Positions 127 to 14,862 are shown, counted from the stretch's first letter. The stretch is 14,862 nucleotides of DNA from Candidatus Micrarchaeota archaeon (GCA_043813365.1 JBDRLB010000043.1:1-14862), one strand, 5' to 3'. Numbers and translations are program-made. Notes: generated by a model from the sequence alone, not told the origin.

Positions 127-182
127 CTAAGGTATTAAAGATAAGCCAATTCCATTGTTAACGAATTGCCTTTTCATTCTGA

Positions 183-190
183 TTTATAAG
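183..190 (+). promoter_or_regulatory. TATA box of tRNA-Pro
   Basis: TTTATAAG ending about 29 nt before the mature tRNA 5' end. Confidence 0.6.
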
Positions 191-218
191 TATAACGATC
201 AACAATAATCGATATAAT

Positions 219-443
219 GGGGTCGTGGGGTAACCTGGTCATCCTACTGCCTTGGGGACTTTCCTCGCTCGGCGAATGCGAAAGCTATGAAAGCCAGAGT
301 GGCAGCGATCCGAGAAGCCTCTTTTTCTTTCCCGAAAGAAAAATACCCTTGGGAGAAAAAGAAAGGGTTTTTGTCCTGAAAATCAGAAAGGAGGCACGGA
401 AATTCAAATTGGCTGCAAAGCCATGACAGTCTCGGCGACCCCA
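219..443 (+). tRNA. tRNA-Pro(GGG) with three introns: 258-299 (37/38), 315-402 (53/54), 409-429 (59/60)
   Basis: Exons 219-257, 300-314, 403-408 and 430-443 join into a 74-nt cloverleaf: acceptor GGGGTCG/CGACCCC+A, anticodon stem CTGCC/GGCAG with loop TTGGGGT, T arm CCGAG-TTCAAAT-CTCGG. Each junction forms a bulge-helix-bulge. CCA is not encoded; a T-run follows at 444-450. Confidence 0.9.
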
Positions 444-449
444 TTTTTT

Positions 450-908
450 TCAGCTTAAATAGTTCTTTGATGGGATTATTTGGACCTTATGGCCGGCCTG
501 TTGCCATTCATGCAGCTTGCTGGCTACAATATGATCATGGTTGGATTCGATAGCTTGGTGTATAGCGCTCAGCAACGCCTTTTTACGCATTTTTGGCAAT
601 GCCTTGAGGGGCGCGCTCTCGACAGCCTGTTTGATAATTTGTTTTGCTCGTTCAATTTTAGGGTAGAGGCCCGGAATCTCCTCTGCCCTGAAAGGGGAAT
701 ATACGTGGGGCAGTGCCCTTCCGGATGACCGATAGATGCGACCACCATCAAATCGTATGCCCTCATCGTTACGGTGGTCACTAACGGTTATTATCAGTCC
801 CCCCTTACTTTTCCGCATAATTCCAACGCTATATAGGTCCCCCATAATGAATTTCGAAGACTTCTTCCATTCAAAAGTCCTTACTTTCCCGAATTCTCGC
901 GTAGGCAT
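450..908 (-). CDS. Hypothetical basic protein (~152 aa)
   Basis: The ORF track gives 450-974. ATG at 908 is preferred because TTTATATA (941-948, minus strand) and GGGTGG lie upstream. No recognisable motif. Confidence 0.6.
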   Translation of the reverse strand: MPTREFGKVRTFEWKKSSKFIMGDLYSVGIMRKSKGGLIITVSDHRNDEGIRFDGGRIYRSSGRALPHVYSPFRAEEIPGLYPKIERAKQIIKQAVESAPLKALPKMRKKALLSAIHQAIESNHDHIVASKLHEWQQAGHKVQIIPSKNYLS

Positions 909-3349: not shown

Positions 3350-3451
3350 GCGGTCGTGGTCTAGTGGTCAGGATTTGGGCCTTCCACCTCCTTTTCGGAA
3401 GAAAAGGACCGAAGACAGCCTACGGCCCGGGTTCGAATCCCGGCGACCGCA
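3350..3451 (+). tRNA. tRNA-Gly(TCC) with 30-nt canonical intron (3387-3416)
   Basis: Acceptor GCGGTCG/CGACCGC+A, anticodon stem TGGGC/GCCTA, T arm CCGGG-TTCGAAT-CCCGG. BHB central helix CTTC/GAAG with bulges CA|C and AC|A; intron hairpin TCCTTTTC-GGAA-GAAAAGGA. Confidence 0.95.
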
Positions 3452-4399: not shown

Positions 4400-4630
4400 A
4401 TGGATCCTAATTTTAGTCATAGCTTTCTGCCGAAACACACCATCGCTTCCGAAGATGAAGTGGATGAAGTGCTCAAGAAATATAGTATCACCAAGGAGAA
4501 TTTGCCGATCCTGAAGTCAGATGACCCCGCAGCGAAAGCGATGAATGCAAAGGCCGGCGACGTGATCAGGATCGTAAGGATCCTTTCCGACGGCAAGGAA
4601 GCGCTTTACTGGAGGGTTGTGGTCGATTAA
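4400..4630 (+). CDS. rpoH: DNA-directed RNA polymerase subunit H (Rpo5)
   Basis: HSFLPKH...LPILKSDDPAAKAMNAKAGDVIRIVR...YWRVV; first gene of the rpo operon. TTG 4388 is the alternative start. Confidence 0.95.
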   Translation: MDPNFSHSFLPKHTIASEDEVDEVLKKYSITKENLPILKSDDPAAKAMNAKAGDVIRIVRILSDGKEALYWRVVVD

Positions 4631-4631
4631 T

Positions 4632-6104
4632 ATGGAAAGCCGCGAGCTCACAAAATTCTACCTGAACGAGAACTCGATGATGAAGCAGTTCATCGAATCC
4701 TACAACAAGTTCATCGAGGAAGGATTGCAGCTGGTGGTTGAATCGCAGGCGACAATTGAGCCGCAGGTGGAAAACCTTGTTTTGAAGCTCGGTAAAGTTA
4801 CAGTTGGCCAGCCTTCAATCACGGAAGCGGACGGCACTAGGAGGGTGCTTTACCCGCAGGAGGCAAGGCTCAGGGACCTTTCATACACGGCGCCGTTATT
4901 CCTAGAGATAACGCCGCTTTTCTCCGGAAGCGAAGGCCGCATGGAAACCGTTTTCATAGGGGAAATACCGGTGATGCTCAAATCCAAAATCTGCTATCTC
5001 TCGCAGATGAATAGGGACGAGCTTATAGCAGCAGGCGAGGATCCCCAAGATCCCGGCGGGTATTTCATCATCAACGGCACCGAAAAGGCGCTCATTAGCA
5101 TAGAAGATCTTGCGCCGAACCGGATTTTCGTTTCCAGGGAAAAGGAAAAGGAGCTCATACAGGCAAAGGTTTTTTCAACAAGGCTTGGATTCCGCGGGAG
5201 GATCACAGTTGACCGCACAAGGGAAGGCCGCCTTTCCGTTACTTTGCCCTCATTCAACAAATCAATAGAATTGCTCGTATTGCTAAAAGCGCTCGGATTG
5301 GACAGGCAGGAGAAAATATTTGCCGCTTTCCCGGAAAGCCCAGACATTGCAAATGATCTGCTGCTCAACTGGGAAACCGATTCTGATGTGAAAACAAAGA
5401 AGGATGCATTGGAAGCAATTGGGAAGCGCGCAGCACCCGGCCAGCCGGTTGACTACCAGCTAAAGCGCGCCGAACTTCTTATTGATAGGTACCTCCTTCC
5501 GCACATTGGTGTTGAGGAGAAGGATCGGCTCGCGAAGGGGTATTACCTCTGCAGGATGGCGGAAAGGTCCATCTTGACCGCCTACAGGAGAAGGAAGCCC
5601 GAGGACAAGGATCACTATGCGAACAAGCGCATCAAAATTGGCGGGAAACTCATGGAGGAGCTATTCAGGTATGCGTTCCAATTCTTCGTCAAGGATGTTG
5701 CCTACCAGCTGGAGAGGGCGAATATCAGGAGAAGGAAGATGACGCTCTTCACAATTGTGAGGCCGGATGCATTGACTGAAAGGATCAAATACTCAATGGC
5801 AACAGGTAACTGGATGGGCGGCCATACGGGAGTATGCCAGCCGCTTGACAGGTACAATTTCATTTCCTCGGTCGCATTCATGCGCAGGGTAATTTCGCCG
5901 CTTGCAAAGAAGCACCCGCACCACAAGGCAAGGGATCTGCACGGCACCCATTTCGGCAGGCTGGACCCGAACGAAACCCCCGAAGGCCCGAACTGCGGCT
6001 TGATCAAATCACTCTCGCTTTTCTGTGAAATCACCCCAGGTTCGGAGGAGAAAGGCATTGAGAAATCCTTGAAGAGCCTGGGAGTTACAATGCAGGCGCT
6101 ATAA
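4632..6104 (+). CDS. rpoB2: RNA polymerase subunit B'' (Rpo2N)
   Basis: PQEARLRDLSY, DPGGYFIINGTEK, DKDHYANKR, ARDLHGTHFGRLDPNETPEGPNCGL. ATG 4632 lies 1 nt after the rpoH stop. Confidence 0.96.
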   Translation: MESRELTKFYLNENSMMKQFIESYNKFIEEGLQLVVESQATIEPQVENLVLKLGKVTVGQPSITEADGTRRVLYPQEARLRDLSYTAPLFLEITPLFSGSEGRMETVFIGEIPVMLKSKICYLSQMNRDELIAAGEDPQDPGGYFIINGTEKALISIEDLAPNRIFVSREKEKELIQAKVFSTRLGFRGRITVDRTREGRLSVTLPSFNKSIELLVLLKALGLDRQEKIFAAFPESPDIANDLLLNWETDSDVKTKKDALEAIGKRAAPGQPVDYQLKRAELLIDRYLLPHIGVEEKDRLAKGYYLCRMAERSILTAYRRRKPEDKDHYANKRIKIGGKLMEELFRYAFQFFVKDVAYQLERANIRRRKMTLFTIVRPDALTERIKYSMATGNWMGGHTGVCQPLDRYNFISSVAFMRRVISPLAKKHPHHKARDLHGTHFGRLDPNETPEGPNCGLIKSLSLFCEITPGSEEKGIEKSLKSLGVTMQAL

Positions 6105-6113
6105 GGAATAATT

Positions 6114-6212
6114 ATGTTCAAACAATTTTCAATGGAGGGGGATGCTTTCAAGGGTAGCGGGGGAACCGAAGGTGCCCCCAAGACGCTTGGAGTGACGATG
6201 CAGGCGCTTTGA
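6114..6212 (+). other. 32-codon mini-ORF ending in a diverged duplicate of the rpoB'' 3' end
   Basis: MFKQFSMEGDAFKGSGGTEGAPKTLGVTMQAL*. Positions 6180-6212 match 6072-6104 at 26/33 nt; a hairpin lies at 6159-6179. Whether it is translated is unknown. Confidence 0.6.
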
Positions 6213-6230
6213 AAGAAAAACATTTACGTG

Positions 6231-8045
6231 ATGACAATGAAAAGTTCCGTTTTCCTGAATGGCCGGTTCGTAGGTTTCCATGACAGCGGAGGGAAGCTCG
6301 TGGAGGAGATGAGGGATAAGCGAAGGAAGGGCGAAGTGGACTCCCAGATGAACGTTTGCTTCTACGAAAAGACAAACGAAGTGTTCATAAACTCGGACGA
6401 GGGAAGGGCGAGAAGGCCGGTCATAGTCGTCAAGAATGGGAAGAGCGCCTTGCTTCCGGAACATGTGGAAAAGCTGAAGGCCGGCCAGCTGAAATGGAAG
6501 GACCTCGTAACCAAGGGAATAATCGAGTACGTTGATGCGGAGGAGGAGGAGAATGCGTACATTGCAATGCGCGAGGATGAGCTTTCAACGCAGAATACGC
6601 ACCTTGAAATTGACCCGAACGGCATTCTCGGATATGTTTCCAATCAAATTCCTTTTCTTGAGCATAACATGGCTCCCAGAGTGCTAATGGCATCGCAGCA
6701 TGCAAAGCAGGCATTGGGGCTCTATTCTGCGAATTTCAACCTCAGGGGCGAAACCCGCGGTTACATTCTATTCTATCCGCAACGCCCGATTGTGCAGACA
6801 AGGGTTTACGATAACCTTAAGAATTACAAGAGATGCGCGGGCCAGAATTTCGTTGTCGCAGTCATGAGTTTTTATGGGTTCAACATGAACGATGCGATCG
6901 TGCTCAACAAGAACGCAGTTGACAGGGCAATGGGAAGGAGCGCATTCTTCAGGACGTACAATGCGGAAGAGCGCAGGTATCCCGGCGGCCAGAAGGACAA
7001 GTTCGAGATCCCTCCGGAATACGTGCAGGGCTATTTGGGTGAAGAAACTTACAAGAATATTGAAACCGATGGTTTGATATCACCGGAGGCATATGTCCCG
7101 GGGGATTCCGTCCTGATAGGGAAAACGTCGCCGCCAAGGTTCCTCAAGGAAATTTCAGCCCTCGATGTCGAGGTGGAGAAGCGCAGGGAATCATCGGTAA
7201 CTGTAAGAAGCAATGAGGATGGGATAGTCGATTCCGTAATGGTTTCGGAAAGCATTGCAGGCAACAAATTCGTGAAGGTCCGTGTGAGGAAAACGAACGT
7301 GCCGGAGATCGGGGACAAATTCGCCTCGAGGTACGGGCAGAAGGGAATTGTCGCACTTCTAGTCAACCAGGAGGACATGCCATTCACCAAGGACGGCGTA
7401 GTCCCGGACCTGATCATCAACCCGCACGCAATTCCGGGAAGGATGACTGCTGGCCACCTGCTTGAGATGCTGGGCGGCAAGGCAGCATGCCTTGAGGGAA
7501 GCCTGAGGGACGGCACGAGCTTCACCGGCGATTCGCAGGATGATTATGAGGCGATACTCGAAAAATACGGATTCGCGCCTTCCGGCCACGAACGACTCTA
7601 CGACGGCTATACGGGAAGGATGATGTCGGCAAAAATTTTCACCGGAGTAATCTACTACCAGCGGCTCCACCATTTGGTTGGATTGAAAATTCACGCAAGG
7701 AGCAGGGGACCCGTGCAGATGCTCACCCACCAGCCAACAGAAGGAAGGGCTCGTGAGGGAGGGCTTAGGCTGGGGGAGATGGAAAGGGATTGCTTCATCG
7801 GCTTCGGTGCGGCTTCCCTTCTGAAGGAGAGGATGATCGAGAGCTCGGACAAGACAACGGAGCTTATTTGCAATAAATGCGGCGCGAATGCGGTGTTCGA
7901 CAAGCTGAAGAACAAGACCACATGCCCGCTTTGCGAGAGCACGAGCTTTTCGGAAGTGGAGATGAGCTATGCATTCAAGCTTCTTGTCGATGAGATGAAA
8001 TCCATCGGAATATTTCCAAAATTGAATTTGAAGGATAAGGGTTGA
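6231..8045 (+). CDS. rpoB1: RNA polymerase subunit B' (Rpo2C)
   Basis: VFLNG, IEYVDAEEEE, LIGKTSPP, GDKFASRYGQKG, QPTEGRAREGGLRLGEMERD, Zn ribbon CNKC/CPLC, YAFKLL. The start could be 6228, 6231 or 6237. Confidence 0.96.
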   Translation: MTMKSSVFLNGRFVGFHDSGGKLVEEMRDKRRKGEVDSQMNVCFYEKTNEVFINSDEGRARRPVIVVKNGKSALLPEHVEKLKAGQLKWKDLVTKGIIEYVDAEEEENAYIAMREDELSTQNTHLEIDPNGILGYVSNQIPFLEHNMAPRVLMASQHAKQALGLYSANFNLRGETRGYILFYPQRPIVQTRVYDNLKNYKRCAGQNFVVAVMSFYGFNMNDAIVLNKNAVDRAMGRSAFFRTYNAEERRYPGGQKDKFEIPPEYVQGYLGEETYKNIETDGLISPEAYVPGDSVLIGKTSPPRFLKEISALDVEVEKRRESSVTVRSNEDGIVDSVMVSESIAGNKFVKVRVRKTNVPEIGDKFASRYGQKGIVALLVNQEDMPFTKDGVVPDLIINPHAIPGRMTAGHLLEMLGGKAACLEGSLRDGTSFTGDSQDDYEAILEKYGFAPSGHERLYDGYTGRMMSAKIFTGVIYYQRLHHLVGLKIHARSRGPVQMLTHQPTEGRAREGGLRLGEMERDCFIGFGAASLLKERMIESSDKTTELICNKCGANAVFDKLKNKTTCPLCESTSFSEVEMSYAFKLLVDEMKSIGIFPKLNLKDKG

Positions 8046-8089
8046 ATCGATAATCAATCGCCATATGCGTTCCAAAATGTTGATACAAA

Positions 8090-11000
8090 ATGAAAGTCGT
8101 GGAATCCATTGAATTCGGGGTTTTCTCGCCGGACCAGGTGAGGAAGCTATCGGCAGCAAAGATAACCGTGCCGGATACTTACGACGAGGACGGCTACCCC
8201 ATTGCAGGAGGTCTAGCTGACCAGCATCTTGGCGTGATCGACCCGGGCTTGAAATGCAAAACATGCGGCGGAAGGATGAAGAGCTGCAGCGGCCACTTCG
8301 GCCATATTGAGCTTGTAAGGCCGGTTATCCACGTGGGATTCGCTAAAATGGTCTACCAGCTGCTGAAGGCAACATGCTCTAGGTGCGGGAAATTGCTGCT
8401 TGAAATTGATTCATTGGATAAGGTGAGGCGGGTTGCGGAATGCCCCCATTGCAATGAGAAGCAGAAGCAGATAAAATTCATAAGGCCCATTTCATTTTAC
8501 GAAGAGGAGCGCAAGCTGCTCCCTTCGGAAATCCGCGAGCGCCTTGAGAGGATCCAGGACGAGGACCTGCAGACAATACGAGTAGCATTCAGGCCCGAAT
8601 GGATCGTGCTTACAGTATTGCTCGTGCCTCCTGTTTCCGTCAGGCCTTCCATAACGCTTGAAACCGGCGAGAGAAGCGAGGACGACCTTACCCACAAATT
8701 GGTGGATATTATTAGGATCAACCAGCGGCTAGCGGAAAACATCGATGCGGGAGCGCCACAATTGATCATCGAGGATTTATGGGAGCTGCTCCAATATCAT
8801 GTTGTGACCTATTACGACAATGAAACGGCGGGGATACCGCCGGCCCGCCACCGCTCGGGAAGGCAGCTGAAAACGCTTTTCCAGAGATTGAAAGGGAAAG
8901 AGGGCAGGTTCCGTTACAACCTGTCGGGAAAAAGGGTTAACTTCTCCGCGAGGACGGTTATTTCTCCTGATCCGACATTGGGGATCAACGAGCTCGGGAT
9001 TCCGGAAAGCATTGCTGCTGAGCTGACGCTGCCGCTTACAGTGAACGAATGGAATATGGAATACGTCAAGGAACTTGTCAAGGACCACACCGACAAAATC
9101 AATTACGTCATACGCTCCGATGGAAGGAGGAAGAGGGTCACGAAGGAAAATTTGGAGGAAGTGCTCGGCGAAATCGCGGTCGGCTATACGCTTGAGAGGC
9201 AGCTTATGGACGGCGACACCGTGATTTTCAACAGGCAGCCCTCATTGCACAGGATTTCGATGATGTGCCACACCGCAAAGGTGCTTCCGGGAAAAACCTT
9301 CAGGTTCAATGTTGCGGACTGCAGGCCTTACAATGCGGATTTCGACGGCGATGAAATGAACCTCCATGTGCCGCAGAACGAGGAGGCGCAGGCTGAAGCG
9401 GAAATACTCATGAAGGTGCAGGACCAGGTGCTCTCCCAAAGGAACGGGGAGCCGATCATCTCCGCAGATCTCGACCAGATTTCAGGGATCTACCTCATGA
9501 CCCTGCCGGACATAACCTTCTCCAAGGCGGAAGCATGCGAATATCTTGATGCGGGCGGCATCGTATCTGATGTGAAGGACGATATCACCGGAAGGGAGCT
9601 ATTCAGCCTGATGCTTCCGAAAGGATTCGAGTTCAGCTTCGTTAACAAAGTGAAGGAGAATGTGGAGATAAAGAATTCCAAACTCGTCAACGGCCACATC
9701 GACAGCAAGACGAATGATGCGATCACGAGGGAAGTTTTCGCGAAATACGGCGCATCCGAAGCGCAGAAGTTCATCGACGCATCCACGAAAATCGCAAGCA
9801 AAATCGTTACCAGATACGGGCTTTCGCTGAGTTTGGTCGATTACGAGCTTCCCATAGAGGCGAAGAACGATATCCGCCAGATTCTCAAGGACAGCAGGAA
9901 CAGCCAGAAGACAGTTGTCAACCAATTGAGGGAAGGCAGGCTCGTCAGGCAGCCCGGAAAAACCCTCAAGGACAGCTTCGAGGAAAAGATGATGAACATC
10001 CTCGAGGAGACGCGTGAAAAATGCGGCAGGGTCATTCTCAAGCACATCCACAAGGAAAAGGTATTTTTCGGGGACGTTGAGCTGCACCAGAATCCCGCGA
10101 TCATGATGAGCAAGGCAGGCGCAAAAGGCAAGCTGCTCAACGTAGTGCAAATGGCAGCCATTGTAGGCCAGCAGGCAATCCGTGGGAAAAGGATGACAGC
10201 CGGATACAGCAACAGGATACTTTCGCATTTCAGGAAGGGCGACCTCACCGCGTACGCGAAGGGATTCGTCGCAAACAATTACAAAATAGGCATGGATCCG
10301 ATCGAATATTTCTTCCATGCGGCCGGAGGAAGGGACTCCGTCGTGGACAAGGGAGTCAACCCCGCGAAAACGGGCTACATGCAAAGGAGGCTTATCAATG
10401 CACTTCAGGACCTGATCGTAAAGGAAGACATGAGCGTGCGCGATGCGGAAGGGAACATCGGCCAATTCACTTACGGAGAGGACGGGCTCGACTCGTGCGG
10501 CCAAAAAGTTGCCTACGGGGAGCCGGTAGGGGTCATTGCCGCCCAGAGCATCGGCGAGCCAGGGACGCAGATGACTCTTAGGACCTTCCACTATGCGGGA
10601 GTCGCATCCCTCGCACAGTTGGGGTTCACCAGGCTCGTTGAAATAGTCGATGCAAGGAAAACCCCGAAGAATCCCGTCATGGACATAGTGCTGAAGCCGG
10701 AGTACGCGAAGGATTACAAGAAGGTCGCCCAGATGGCCGCGTCAATAGAGCAGGTTTCGCTTTCCAAAATAGCGACAATAAAGGAGGATTTCGGCTCCAA
10801 GAGGATAAAAGTCATGCTCAACAAGGAAAAGATGAAGGAGGTCAAGATAGGCGAGGAGGAAGTCCTCAAGGCCATCAAGGCAGTATCGGACTTCGAGAGG
10901 AGGGGCGATACGGTCATGGTTATCCCGAAGCAGGACACGCTGAAATTCATCAGGAAAACAACTACAAAGCTTTCCGAAATCATCCTCAAGGGGATCGCGG

Positions 11001-11482
11001 GAATAAACCGCGCTATCATCATCGAGCAGCCGGACGGCTCGCACTCAATTGCGACCGAAGGCACGAATCTGGAGGAAGTATTCAAGATCCCGGAGGTTGA
11101 CGCGGCAAAAACCGCCACTAACGACACGATGGAAATCCAGCGCGTACTTGGGATCGAAGCCGCAAGGAACTCCATCATTGCCGAAATCGATAAGGTCATG
11201 AAGGCGCAGGACCTGAAGGTGGATTACAGGCATATCGCACTTATTGCGGACACGATGACTTACAAGGGGGAAGTTAAGAGCATTGGCCGGCACGGGCTTG
11301 CAGGGGAAAAGGCATCGGTGCTCGCACGCGCTGCTTTCGAGGAAACCGCAAAGCACCTCATCAACGCATGCATCGGCGGTGAGAAGGATGAGCTCCGTGG
11401 AATCACCGAGAACATCATTATAGGGCAGACGATACCCTGCGGAACCGGACTCGTGAAGGTCGTCATGAAGGCGCAGGAATAG
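8090..11482 (+). CDS. rpoA: RNA polymerase largest subunit, A' and A'' fused in one 1130-aa ORF (Rpo1)
   Basis: CKTC..CSGHFGH, RLKGKEGRFR, FNRQPSLH, YNADFDGDEMN and GYMQRRL (A' part) continue in frame into AAQSIGEPGTQMTLRTFH, LGIEAAR, SVLARAAFE and ENIIIGQ..GTG (A'' part). Confidence 0.97.
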   Translation: MKVVESIEFGVFSPDQVRKLSAAKITVPDTYDEDGYPIAGGLADQHLGVIDPGLKCKTCGGRMKSCSGHFGHIELVRPVIHVGFAKMVYQLLKATCSRCGKLLLEIDSLDKVRRVAECPHCNEKQKQIKFIRPISFYEEERKLLPSEIRERLERIQDEDLQTIRVAFRPEWIVLTVLLVPPVSVRPSITLETGERSEDDLTHKLVDIIRINQRLAENIDAGAPQLIIEDLWELLQYHVVTYYDNETAGIPPARHRSGRQLKTLFQRLKGKEGRFRYNLSGKRVNFSARTVISPDPTLGINELGIPESIAAELTLPLTVNEWNMEYVKELVKDHTDKINYVIRSDGRRKRVTKENLEEVLGEIAVGYTLERQLMDGDTVIFNRQPSLHRISMMCHTAKVLPGKTFRFNVADCRPYNADFDGDEMNLHVPQNEEAQAEAEILMKVQDQVLSQRNGEPIISADLDQISGIYLMTLPDITFSKAEACEYLDAGGIVSDVKDDITGRELFSLMLPKGFEFSFVNKVKENVEIKNSKLVNGHIDSKTNDAITREVFAKYGASEAQKFIDASTKIASKIVTRYGLSLSLVDYELPIEAKNDIRQILKDSRNSQKTVVNQLREGRLVRQPGKTLKDSFEEKMMNILEETREKCGRVILKHIHKEKVFFGDVELHQNPAIMMSKAGAKGKLLNVVQMAAIVGQQAIRGKRMTAGYSNRILSHFRKGDLTAYAKGFVANNYKIGMDPIEYFFHAAGGRDSVVDKGVNPAKTGYMQRRLINALQDLIVKEDMSVRDAEGNIGQFTYGEDGLDSCGQKVAYGEPVGVIAAQSIGEPGTQMTLRTFHYAGVASLAQLGFTRLVEIVDARKTPKNPVMDIVLKPEYAKDYKKVAQMAASIEQVSLSKIATIKEDFGSKRIKVMLNKEKMKEVKIGEEEVLKAIKAVSDFERRGDTVMVIPKQDTLKFIRKTTTKLSEIILKGIAGINRAIIIEQPDGSHSIATEGTNLEEVFKIPEVDAAKTATNDTMEIQRVLGIEAARNSIIAEIDKVMKAQDLKVDYRHIALIADTMTYKGEVKSIGRHGLAGEKASVLARAAFEETAKHLINACIGGEKDELRGITENIIIGQTIPCGTGLVKVVMKAQE

Positions 11483-14646: not shown

Positions 14647-14862
14647 CTACTTGTAAGTGGTTTCGCTTCTGCGCTCGATGCTCGTAATCCTGACGATCTT
14701 CTCGTTCCAATAGATTTCATATAATATCCGGAAGCTTGAGAGCCTTATGCGGTAAGAATGCCCGGAACCTTCGAGTTTTATCAGGTCATATTCCCTGAAT
14801 GGTGCCGGATTTTCCTTCATAATGACGAACAATTTTACCAATTTTTCACGGATGCCGGCCTG
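14647..14862 (-). CDS. RelE/ParE-family toxin, 5'-truncated by window edge
   Basis: The frame is open to the edge: QAGIREKLVKLFVIMKENPAP..YDLIKLEG...YRIRLSSFRILYEI......VRITSIERRSETTYK, matching the RelE-like KL.G...YR.R.G.YR..Y pattern. Confidence 0.8.
   Translation of the reverse strand, partial: QAGIREKLVKLFVIMKENPAPFREYDLIKLEGSGHSYRIRLSSFRILYEIYWNEKIVRITSIERRSETTYK

Follow-up and report, generated by a model that had tools for sequence, protein, structure and literature searches.

The window analysed here, a stretch of 14,862 nucleotides from a Candidatus Micrarchaeota archaeon (GCA_043813365.1, JBDRLB010000043.1:1-14862), raises the question of whether a tRNA gene split into four short exons can be recognised as a working gene, in what order its introns would leave the transcript and where those introns came from. 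An earlier note on this DNA had proposed a tRNA-Pro(GGG) gene with introns at positions 37/38, 53/54 and 59/60 and a micro-exon of six nucleotides, and this proposal is borne out by the ARAGORN result for the spliced 74-mer. The three-intron gene lies at window positions 219-443 on the plus strand (as do all window features below unless stated otherwise), and its coordinates and motifs were all confirmed in the sequence. Exon 1 (219-257) holds the 5′ strand of the acceptor stem, the D arm, the 5′ strand of the anticodon stem and the anticodon loop as far as G37, with the anticodon GGG at 254-256; it fits the ARAGORN cloverleaf and is conserved in 12 orthologues. It is followed by intron 1 (258-299), which is 42 nt long, sits at the canonical position 37/38 and has a strict hBHBh' motif. 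Exon 2 (300-314) contributes U38, the 3′ strand of the anticodon stem, the 4-nt variable loop and the 5′ strand of the T stem, CCGAG. Intron 2 (315-402), of 88 nt at position 53/54, has a near-strict BHB and belongs to a tRNA-intron repeat family with dispersed copies. Exon 3 (403-408) is the micro-exon TTCAAA, corresponding to tRNA positions 54-59 in the T loop, and is separated by intron 3 (409-429; 21 nt, position 59/60, relaxed BHB) from exon 4 (430-443), which comprises U60, the 3′ strands of the T and acceptor stems and the discriminator A73; CCA is not encoded.

When joined, the four exons (39+15+6+14 nt) give a 74-nt molecule that ARAGORN identifies as tRNA-Pro(GGG). In the cloverleaf that it draws, the acceptor stem is 7 bp long, the D arm contains G18G19, the anticodon stem has 5 bp and the loop UUGGGGU, the variable loop has 4 nt, the T arm reads CCGAG-TTCAAAT-CTCGG and the discriminator is A. 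The conserved tRNA core, read off the same drawing, is represented by U8, A14, G18G19, A21, G37, G53-C61 and A73. The three introns account for 151 nt (67%) of the 225-nt precursor. In the unspliced window DNA, neither ARAGORN, with introns allowed or not, nor Rfam reports a tRNA at 219-443, just as had been predicted of standard annotation.

The flanks resemble those of a transcribed gene. A TATA-like AT-rich box, TTTATAAG, is read from the sequence at 184-191, 28-35 nt upstream of tRNA position 1, and a comparison of upstream flanks places a T/A-rich box at an equal distance in orthologous loci; boxes of this kind act as promoters in archaea, and this one would be the promoter of the gene. 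Immediately after the discriminator comes a run of seven Ts (444-450), likely a transcription terminator, which we assume from the way archaeal transcription ends at oligo-T. A T5 run on the sense strand within intron 2 (322-326) also resembles an archaeal termination signal and might reduce the yield of full-length transcript. The gene model is secure, and we are highly confident that positions 219-443 represent a single functional three-intron tRNA-Pro(GGG) gene in an uncultured DPANN archaeon of Micrarchaeota type, a gene whose transcription and splicing we infer. The locus would be transcribed as a 225-nt precursor with introns at 37/38, 53/54 and 59/60, and RtcB would join the exons to the 74-nt tRNA, to which CCA would be added afterwards.

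This architecture has already been published for a relative, Candidatus Micrarchaeum acidiphilum ARMAN-2, and its novelty was overrated in the earlier note. Figure 1C of Fujishima et al. (2011, NAR 39:9695, PMC3239211) presents an ARMAN-2 pre-tRNA-Pro(GGG) that has introns at 53/54 and 59/60; the two genes thus share the isoacceptor, the adjacent pair of T-loop introns and the implied 6-nt micro-exon, and they belong to the same lineage with the same epsilon2 type of endonuclease. They differ in that the legend of that figure names only the two T-loop introns, both with strict hBHBh' motifs, whereas the present gene also has an intron at 37/38 and its T-loop motifs are slightly relaxed. The introduction of the same paper gives three introns as the known maximum per archaeal tRNA gene. 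Intron sequence families, which are shown below for the present gene, are not reported in the sections of PMC3239211 considered here.

All three introns have BHB architecture with cleavage after the second bulge nucleotide; their bulge/4-bp helix geometry is that of EndA-type introns, and their excision restores a canonical tRNA. In intron 1, the central helix pairs 252-255 with 294-297, its first pair being the wobble T252.G297, and is flanked by bulges at 256-258 and 298-300, by an inner helix (259-263/289-293) and by the anticodon stem as outer helix; our own geometry scorer gives it 0 mismatches, inner 5 and outer 5. The motif of intron 2 scores 12 on the same scorer and consists of a central helix (309-312/397-400), bulges at 313-315 and 401-403 and a 2-bp outer helix (G307-C405, A308-T404). 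These elements had been described correctly before, but the inner helix GCCTC/GAGGC (317-321/391-395) does not lie beside the bulge as then described: an A316.A396 mismatch intervenes and renders the motif slightly relaxed. For intron 3, the central helix (403-406/424-427) contains a T403.C427 mismatch, the bulges lie at 407-409 and 428-430, and the inner hairpin (410-414/419-423) closes a GCAA loop. Its outer helix is the T stem (310-314/431-435), which abuts the rest of the motif only after intron 2 has been removed. Two of the three BHBs, those of introns 2 and 3, are therefore other than strict.

The source genome (G000) is a MAG of 1.34 Mb in 78 contigs with a completeness of 88.6%, and it encodes the enzymes that such a precursor would need. 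Its one EndA gene is a 388-aa ORF with two tRNA_int_endo_N and two tRNA_int_endo Pfam domains in the order N, N, C, C, and residues 12-388 match PDB entry 4fz2 (4fz2_A) with E = 2e-128. This entry is the epsilon2 EndA of ARMAN-2, for which the catalytic triad and a loop lysine are named in PMC3488258; by our own count Y236, H251, K282 and the specificity-loop (ASL) K161 are identical in the alignment. Judged by its sequence, the G000 enzyme is a full-length relative of the ARMAN-2 epsilon2 (three-unit) endonuclease, in agreement with the ARMAN-type lineage and broad-specificity endonuclease that the earlier note had called. The RtcB ligase is also present in G000, with matches at two places. 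One is a 246-aa frame at C7:31021-31758(-) that covers profile positions 186-426; the other is a 719-aa frame at C27:11425-13434(+) that covers positions 1-50 and 42-194, with about 1.4 kb between them. This distribution over two contigs suggests a split gene with an inserted element such as an intein.

How the two T-arm introns are removed depends on an overlap between their motifs. BHB-2 occupies 309-312 and 404-405, and a strict BHB-3 needs the T stem at 310-314 together with the central helix at 403-406. Because nucleotides 403-405 and the T-stem strand are common to both, the strict forms are mutually exclusive, as had been claimed from the sequence. It had also been claimed that the full intron 3 motif, with the T stem as outer helix, forms only after intron 2 is removed; this too holds, in that the intron 3 score rises from 7 in the precursor (scored by hand) to 11 once intron 2 is gone. 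The enzyme would be unable to hold both strict motifs simultaneously, which would allow one complete cut-and-join at a time, and such sequential processing would prevent the release of the TTCAAA micro-exon as a free hexamer. Either T-arm intron may go first, as the overlap would not set which.

A further claim had been that the order is obligatory, that is, that intron 2 is excised and its exons ligated before BHB-3 forms, so that no intermediate arises in which intron 3 is gone and intron 2 is still present. We evaluated it with energies from constrained folding in place of ensemble base-pair probabilities. Unconstrained folding gives these BHBs no preference, and even the canonical intron-1 central helix has a probability of 0.00, so that thermodynamic prediction says little either way. 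The unconstrained MFE of the 225-nt precursor is -81.3 kcal/mol; a strict BHB-2 lowers stability to -78.1 kcal/mol (a cost of 3.2), and a strict BHB-3, in which the T stem closes around intron 2, to -75.7 kcal/mol (a cost of 5.6). An obligatory order is favoured by the T stem serving as outer helix of the strict BHB-3 while its nucleotides 310-312 are taken by the BHB-2 central helix, by the gain in the intron 3 score, and by the cost of the strict BHB-3, which is 1.8 kcal/mol above the MFE after intron 2 removal as opposed to 5.6 in the full precursor. Yet the MFE structure of the precursor already contains a relaxed intron-3 motif, made of a 3-bp central helix and the inner hairpin, and relaxed BHB-2 and relaxed BHB-3 can coexist on one molecule at -77.4 kcal/mol (a cost of 3.9). 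BHB-2 is unaffected by the removal of intron 3, after which its strict form costs 4.5 kcal/mol above the MFE. The two paths have similar costs, 3.2 + 1.8 for intron 2 then intron 3 and 0 to 5.6 + 4.5 for the reverse. In vitro, moreover, the EndA of ARMAN-2, a close relative of the G000 enzyme, cuts a 59/60 intron with a relaxed hBH motif (PMC3239211, PMC3488258). Since the relaxed forms coexist at a small predicted cost, the obligatory order is unsupported as it was stated, and we regard it as unlikely.

Splicing orders dictated by motifs are already in print for nested introns. Soma et al. (2013, PMC3728597) state that in some archaea the BHB of the last intron forms only once the others have been processed, an accepted idea that also speaks for an obligatory order. 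The multi-intron tRNA genes of Thermoproteales, as described in papers citing Sugahara et al. (2007, 2008), resemble the present gene in having up to three BHB introns, non-canonical positions and a broad-specificity endonuclease, and in some of them the last BHB likewise cannot form until the other introns are gone. They differ in phylum, in enzyme type ((alpha-beta)2 there, epsilon2 here) and in arrangement, their introns being nested, whereas those of the present gene are adjacent and share three nucleotides. Three-intron tRNAs that include a T-loop intron are also found in Cyanidioschyzon merolae, where RT-PCR of intermediates established the order of BHB processing and this order correlates with BHB free energy (Soma et al., 2013, PMC3728597). 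Unlike the archaeal gene, those of this eukaryote, a red alga, have motifs that fold independently and without overlap.

Support for the exon boundaries comes from relatives. Searching 60 related genomes at the DNA level and then dissecting the loci yielded 12 orthologous tRNA-Pro(GGG) genes, in which the exons are conserved while the introns diverge. Eleven of the 12 have a 37/38 intron homologous to intron 1; the exception, in G010 (L014:1467-1539), is an intron-free tRNA-Pro(GGG) that scores 52.8 bits against Rfam RF00005 (gathering score 29). In G001 the 37/38 intron is the only one. G002 and G005 add an intron at 53/54, of the same family and at the same site as intron 2, and have no intron at 59/60; TTCAAATCTCGG is uninterrupted there, with exact borders. 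G003 and G004 combine the 37/38 intron with an intron of about 110-140 nt at 59/60, in place of intron 3, and GATCCGAGTTCAAA is uninterrupted. In orthologues without T-loop introns, GATCCGAG-TTCAAAT-CTCGG is contiguous, and no orthologue among the 12 combines the two T-loop introns. Because the relatives carry none, one or two introns, each proposed junction is found uninterrupted in some relative. At the gathering threshold, Rfam misses L026 and L005, two orthologues whose canonical introns are long.

Across six species of a single genus, one tRNA displays all four combinations of T-loop introns (none, 53/54 only, 59/60 only and both), and these species form a natural series for tests of intron gain and loss and of splicing order on real substrates. 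RpoB' identity to G000 is 86-89% for each of G001-G005. We further note a compensatory change in a paralogous host: the BHB-2 central helix, TCCG/CGGA in tRNA-Pro(GGG), is TCTG/CAGA in the tRNA-Pro(UGG) of G005 (L028), where an intron of the intron-2 family occupies the identical site, TCTG being the exon strand and CAGA the intron strand. The sequencing runs listed in a search for those holding the gene include none of RNA, and four metagenome runs returned only low-depth contigs of relatives, which bear on neither expression nor intron-less DNA variants of this gene.

The same comparisons bear on whether the locus is a decaying or non-functional copy, a relic that has accumulated introns and repeats and whose transcript no longer matures into a working tRNA. 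Such a reading could point to the share of the gene that is intron (67%), to intron 2 as a copy of a spreading repeat, to imperfect BHBs in two of the three introns and to the T5 run inside the gene. Against it, the four exons are intact and form a flawless cloverleaf, exon sequence is kept in 12 orthologues whose introns diverge, the BHB-2 helix shows its compensatory change in the paralogous host, and the promoter-like and terminator-like flanks are retained. Indeed, this is the only tRNA-Pro(GGG) gene found in the genome; the search found no second one in the 78 contigs of an assembly that is 88.6% complete, from which another copy could have been left unassembled. We therefore consider a relic very improbable.

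A blind search bears on the gene model as a whole. In window positions 151-500, our BHB-geometry scorer removed each candidate segment, rescored after each removal and submitted every product to ARAGORN, which was set to permit a canonical intron. Among 129 single and 3161 double removals (3290 states), exactly one tRNA emerged, in which 315-402 and then 409-429 are removed and a 42-nt canonical intron is left. The idea that tRNA-like fragments came together here by chance, without any gene, has in its favour the blank result of standard finders at the locus and nothing further. None of 12 dinucleotide shuffles of that region gave a tRNA call in the same pipeline, and the orthologues of 12 relatives, which have the same exons, refute the idea in practice; its probability is negligible. 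A functional gene accordingly remains our reading of the locus.

The other tRNA-Pro isoacceptors of G000 are encoded by separate genes, of which Pro(CGG) has a 37/38 intron only. The tRNA-Pro(UGG) gene, on the minus strand of contig C2 with its start at 14821, has a single 20-nt intron at 59/60, whose hairpin closely resembles that of intron 3 of Pro(GGG). Both Pro(UGG) and Pro(CGG) have a weak D stem; a weak D stem in ARMAN-2 tRNA is mentioned in the legend to Figure 1A of Fujishima et al. (2011, PMC3239211). Public records that share the 5′ end of tRNA-Pro are labelled as Candidatus Micrarchaeota, Micrarchaeia, Norongarragalinales, Anstonellales, Woesearchaeota and similar groups. By a script criterion only, the T arm of tRNA-Pro is non-contiguous before the 3′ acceptor strand in seven loci from Anstonellales, Nanoarchaeota, Micrarchaeota and Woesearchaeota (L051, L052, L063, L069, L083, L113 and L120). 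From these sequences, T-loop introns in tRNA-Pro would seem to be widespread across DPANN. In G000 as a whole, 22 tRNAs are found by ARAGORN when introns are permitted and 19 by Rfam; the count reported for ARMAN-2 is 43 (Fujishima et al., 2011, PMC3239211). In DPANN genomes as heavily interrupted as this one, annotation pipelines will report isoacceptors as missing that are in fact present.

What is new here is that intron 2 belongs to a dispersed tRNA-intron family with a conserved pyrimidine-purine-mirror-purine core. The family has five copies in G000, all in tRNA genes, with 79-92% identity over 39-103 aligned bases; besides window 315-402, they lie at C3:74-163, C17:2208-2310(-), C19:32651-32729 and C76:18306-18394. 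One copy each sits at 53/54 in Pro(GGG), at 37/38 in Cys(GCA), at about 37/38 in Asp(GUC), past the D arm of a Ser(GCU)-like gene and at 53/54 in a tRNA truncated by a contig end; the removal pipeline did not reconstruct the hosts on C76 and C17, the latter being the one cut by the contig end. About 30 further copies occur in relatives (loci L002-L048). Their hosts, assigned partly by eye, are Pro(UGG), Ile(UAU)-like, His, Leu, Thr and other tRNAs, and the copies sit in the D loop, the anticodon stem or the T loop or at 37/38. Automated host typing of the roughly 35 copies gave several wrong anticodons, because R/Y hairpins mimic BHBs, and we relied on clean cases and on reading of the flanks instead. 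The family spans the genus and other families of the order, and the 3′ tail of each copy is host-specific and pairs with the host exon. Closely similar introns are thus found at different positions of non-homologous tRNA genes, the hallmark of a mobile type of tRNA intron. One of the host genes, the Ser(GCU)-like gene at C76:18277-18637 (L045), is about 360 nt long and apparently has at least three introns, among them the family copy after the D arm and a T-loop intron of about 175 nt with two modules of the kind described next, in inverted orientation.

The core of intron 2 is a three-tract module at 322-364. A pyrimidine tract Y (322-330, T5CT3) is followed by a 4-nt loop, a purine tract A' (335-343, A3GA5), a short, GC-rich connector (344-355) and a second purine tract A'' (356-364, A5GA3). 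A' is the reverse complement of Y, and A'' is the mirror image of A', in a register in which G361 faces G338-C327. The segments therefore follow the order of a class II potential intrastrand triplex, namely a pyrimidine tract, its Watson-Crick purine complement and a mirror purine tract in register, and on this pattern we class the module as a potential intrastrand triplex. G000 has 33 modules in at least seven run-length classes, and by our reading of the table the asymmetric ones all obey the mirror rule, with none in direct orientation. Within introns the modules occur in either orientation, and others directly adjoin tRNA genes. Tracts with two Gs obey the same mirror rule.

The rule extends across the order. 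With a strictly asymmetric pattern, 67 genomes of the order give 62 mirror matches in 22 genomes, these matches being copies related by descent, versus 3 in 2 genomes for a direct-repeat control. Over 20 distinct connectors occur among the 62 matches. When the pattern is relaxed, 46 of the 67 genomes of the order contain it, as do 77 of 301 genomes in a sample of the phylum, and its distribution is patchy by family (for example, 0/54 and 1/74 in two large families).

Semerad and Maher are said to have found in 1994 that RNA strands are poorly tolerated in purine-motif triplexes, which would point to triplex formation at the DNA level, or in the complementary strand. Taken together, these observations lead us to a joint reading that we put forward as a tentative possibility, and one we ourselves rather doubt. 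Intron 2 would be a copy of a mobile family that has spread within Micrarchaeia to at least 10 tRNA species, at D-loop, anticodon-stem, 37/38 and T-loop sites, and the conserved core of that family would be an A/T-rich class II triplex module and not a splicing motif. The module would be selected as a three-strand structure, tied to tRNA genes and involved in the arrival, persistence or handling of the introns, most likely at the DNA level, and the 3′ tail would be re-tuned to the host exon and thereby build the BHB. The conserved module offers, in any case, a concrete and testable sequence feature for how archaeal tRNA introns spread.

Two known systems come close to this family. The transposed introns of the Thermoproteales type (2010, MBE 27:2233, as described in PMC4090602 and PMC3239211) show the same pattern as the intron-2 family. 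The latter differs in its lineage (Micrarchaeia), in its defined Y-A'-A'' core and in the occurrence of the module just outside tRNA genes, in both orientations. The bacterial class II potential intrastrand triplex motifs, or BoxC-PIT (Holder et al., 2015, PMC4666352), have the same segment order as the present module, with the second purine tract antiparallel to the first, and like it are abundant, dispersed and conserved. The bacterial motif is G/C-rich and intergenic, however, whereas the archaeal module is A/T-rich and tied to tRNA introns and to the flanks of tRNA genes, and the word tRNA is absent from the main text of Holder et al. (2015, PMC4666352). Literature searches that combined the triplex module with tRNA introns or Micrarchaeota, and others on intron transposition in Micrarchaeota, turned up no paper connecting them.

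Several features surround the gene in the window. An ORF of 174 aa on the minus strand (450-974) directly adjoins it. No Pfam family matches this ORF at E <= 1, its best PDB sequence match is at chance level (E = 0.44) and its Atlas TM values reach at most 0.41; its identification as a homing endonuclease accordingly finds no support, Pfam, PDB and Atlas all being without a usable match. A tRNA-Gly(UCC) with a canonical intron of about 30 nt lies at 3350-3451 (Rfam, 54.2 bits; also called by ARAGORN). In several relatives this gene is located directly downstream of tRNA-Pro(GGG), and here the two are 2.9 kb apart. Further along the plus strand, at 4617-11482, is an RNA polymerase operon in which subunit B is divided between two ORFs (4617-6104 and 6228-8045), with an A' subunit of 1130 aa after them.
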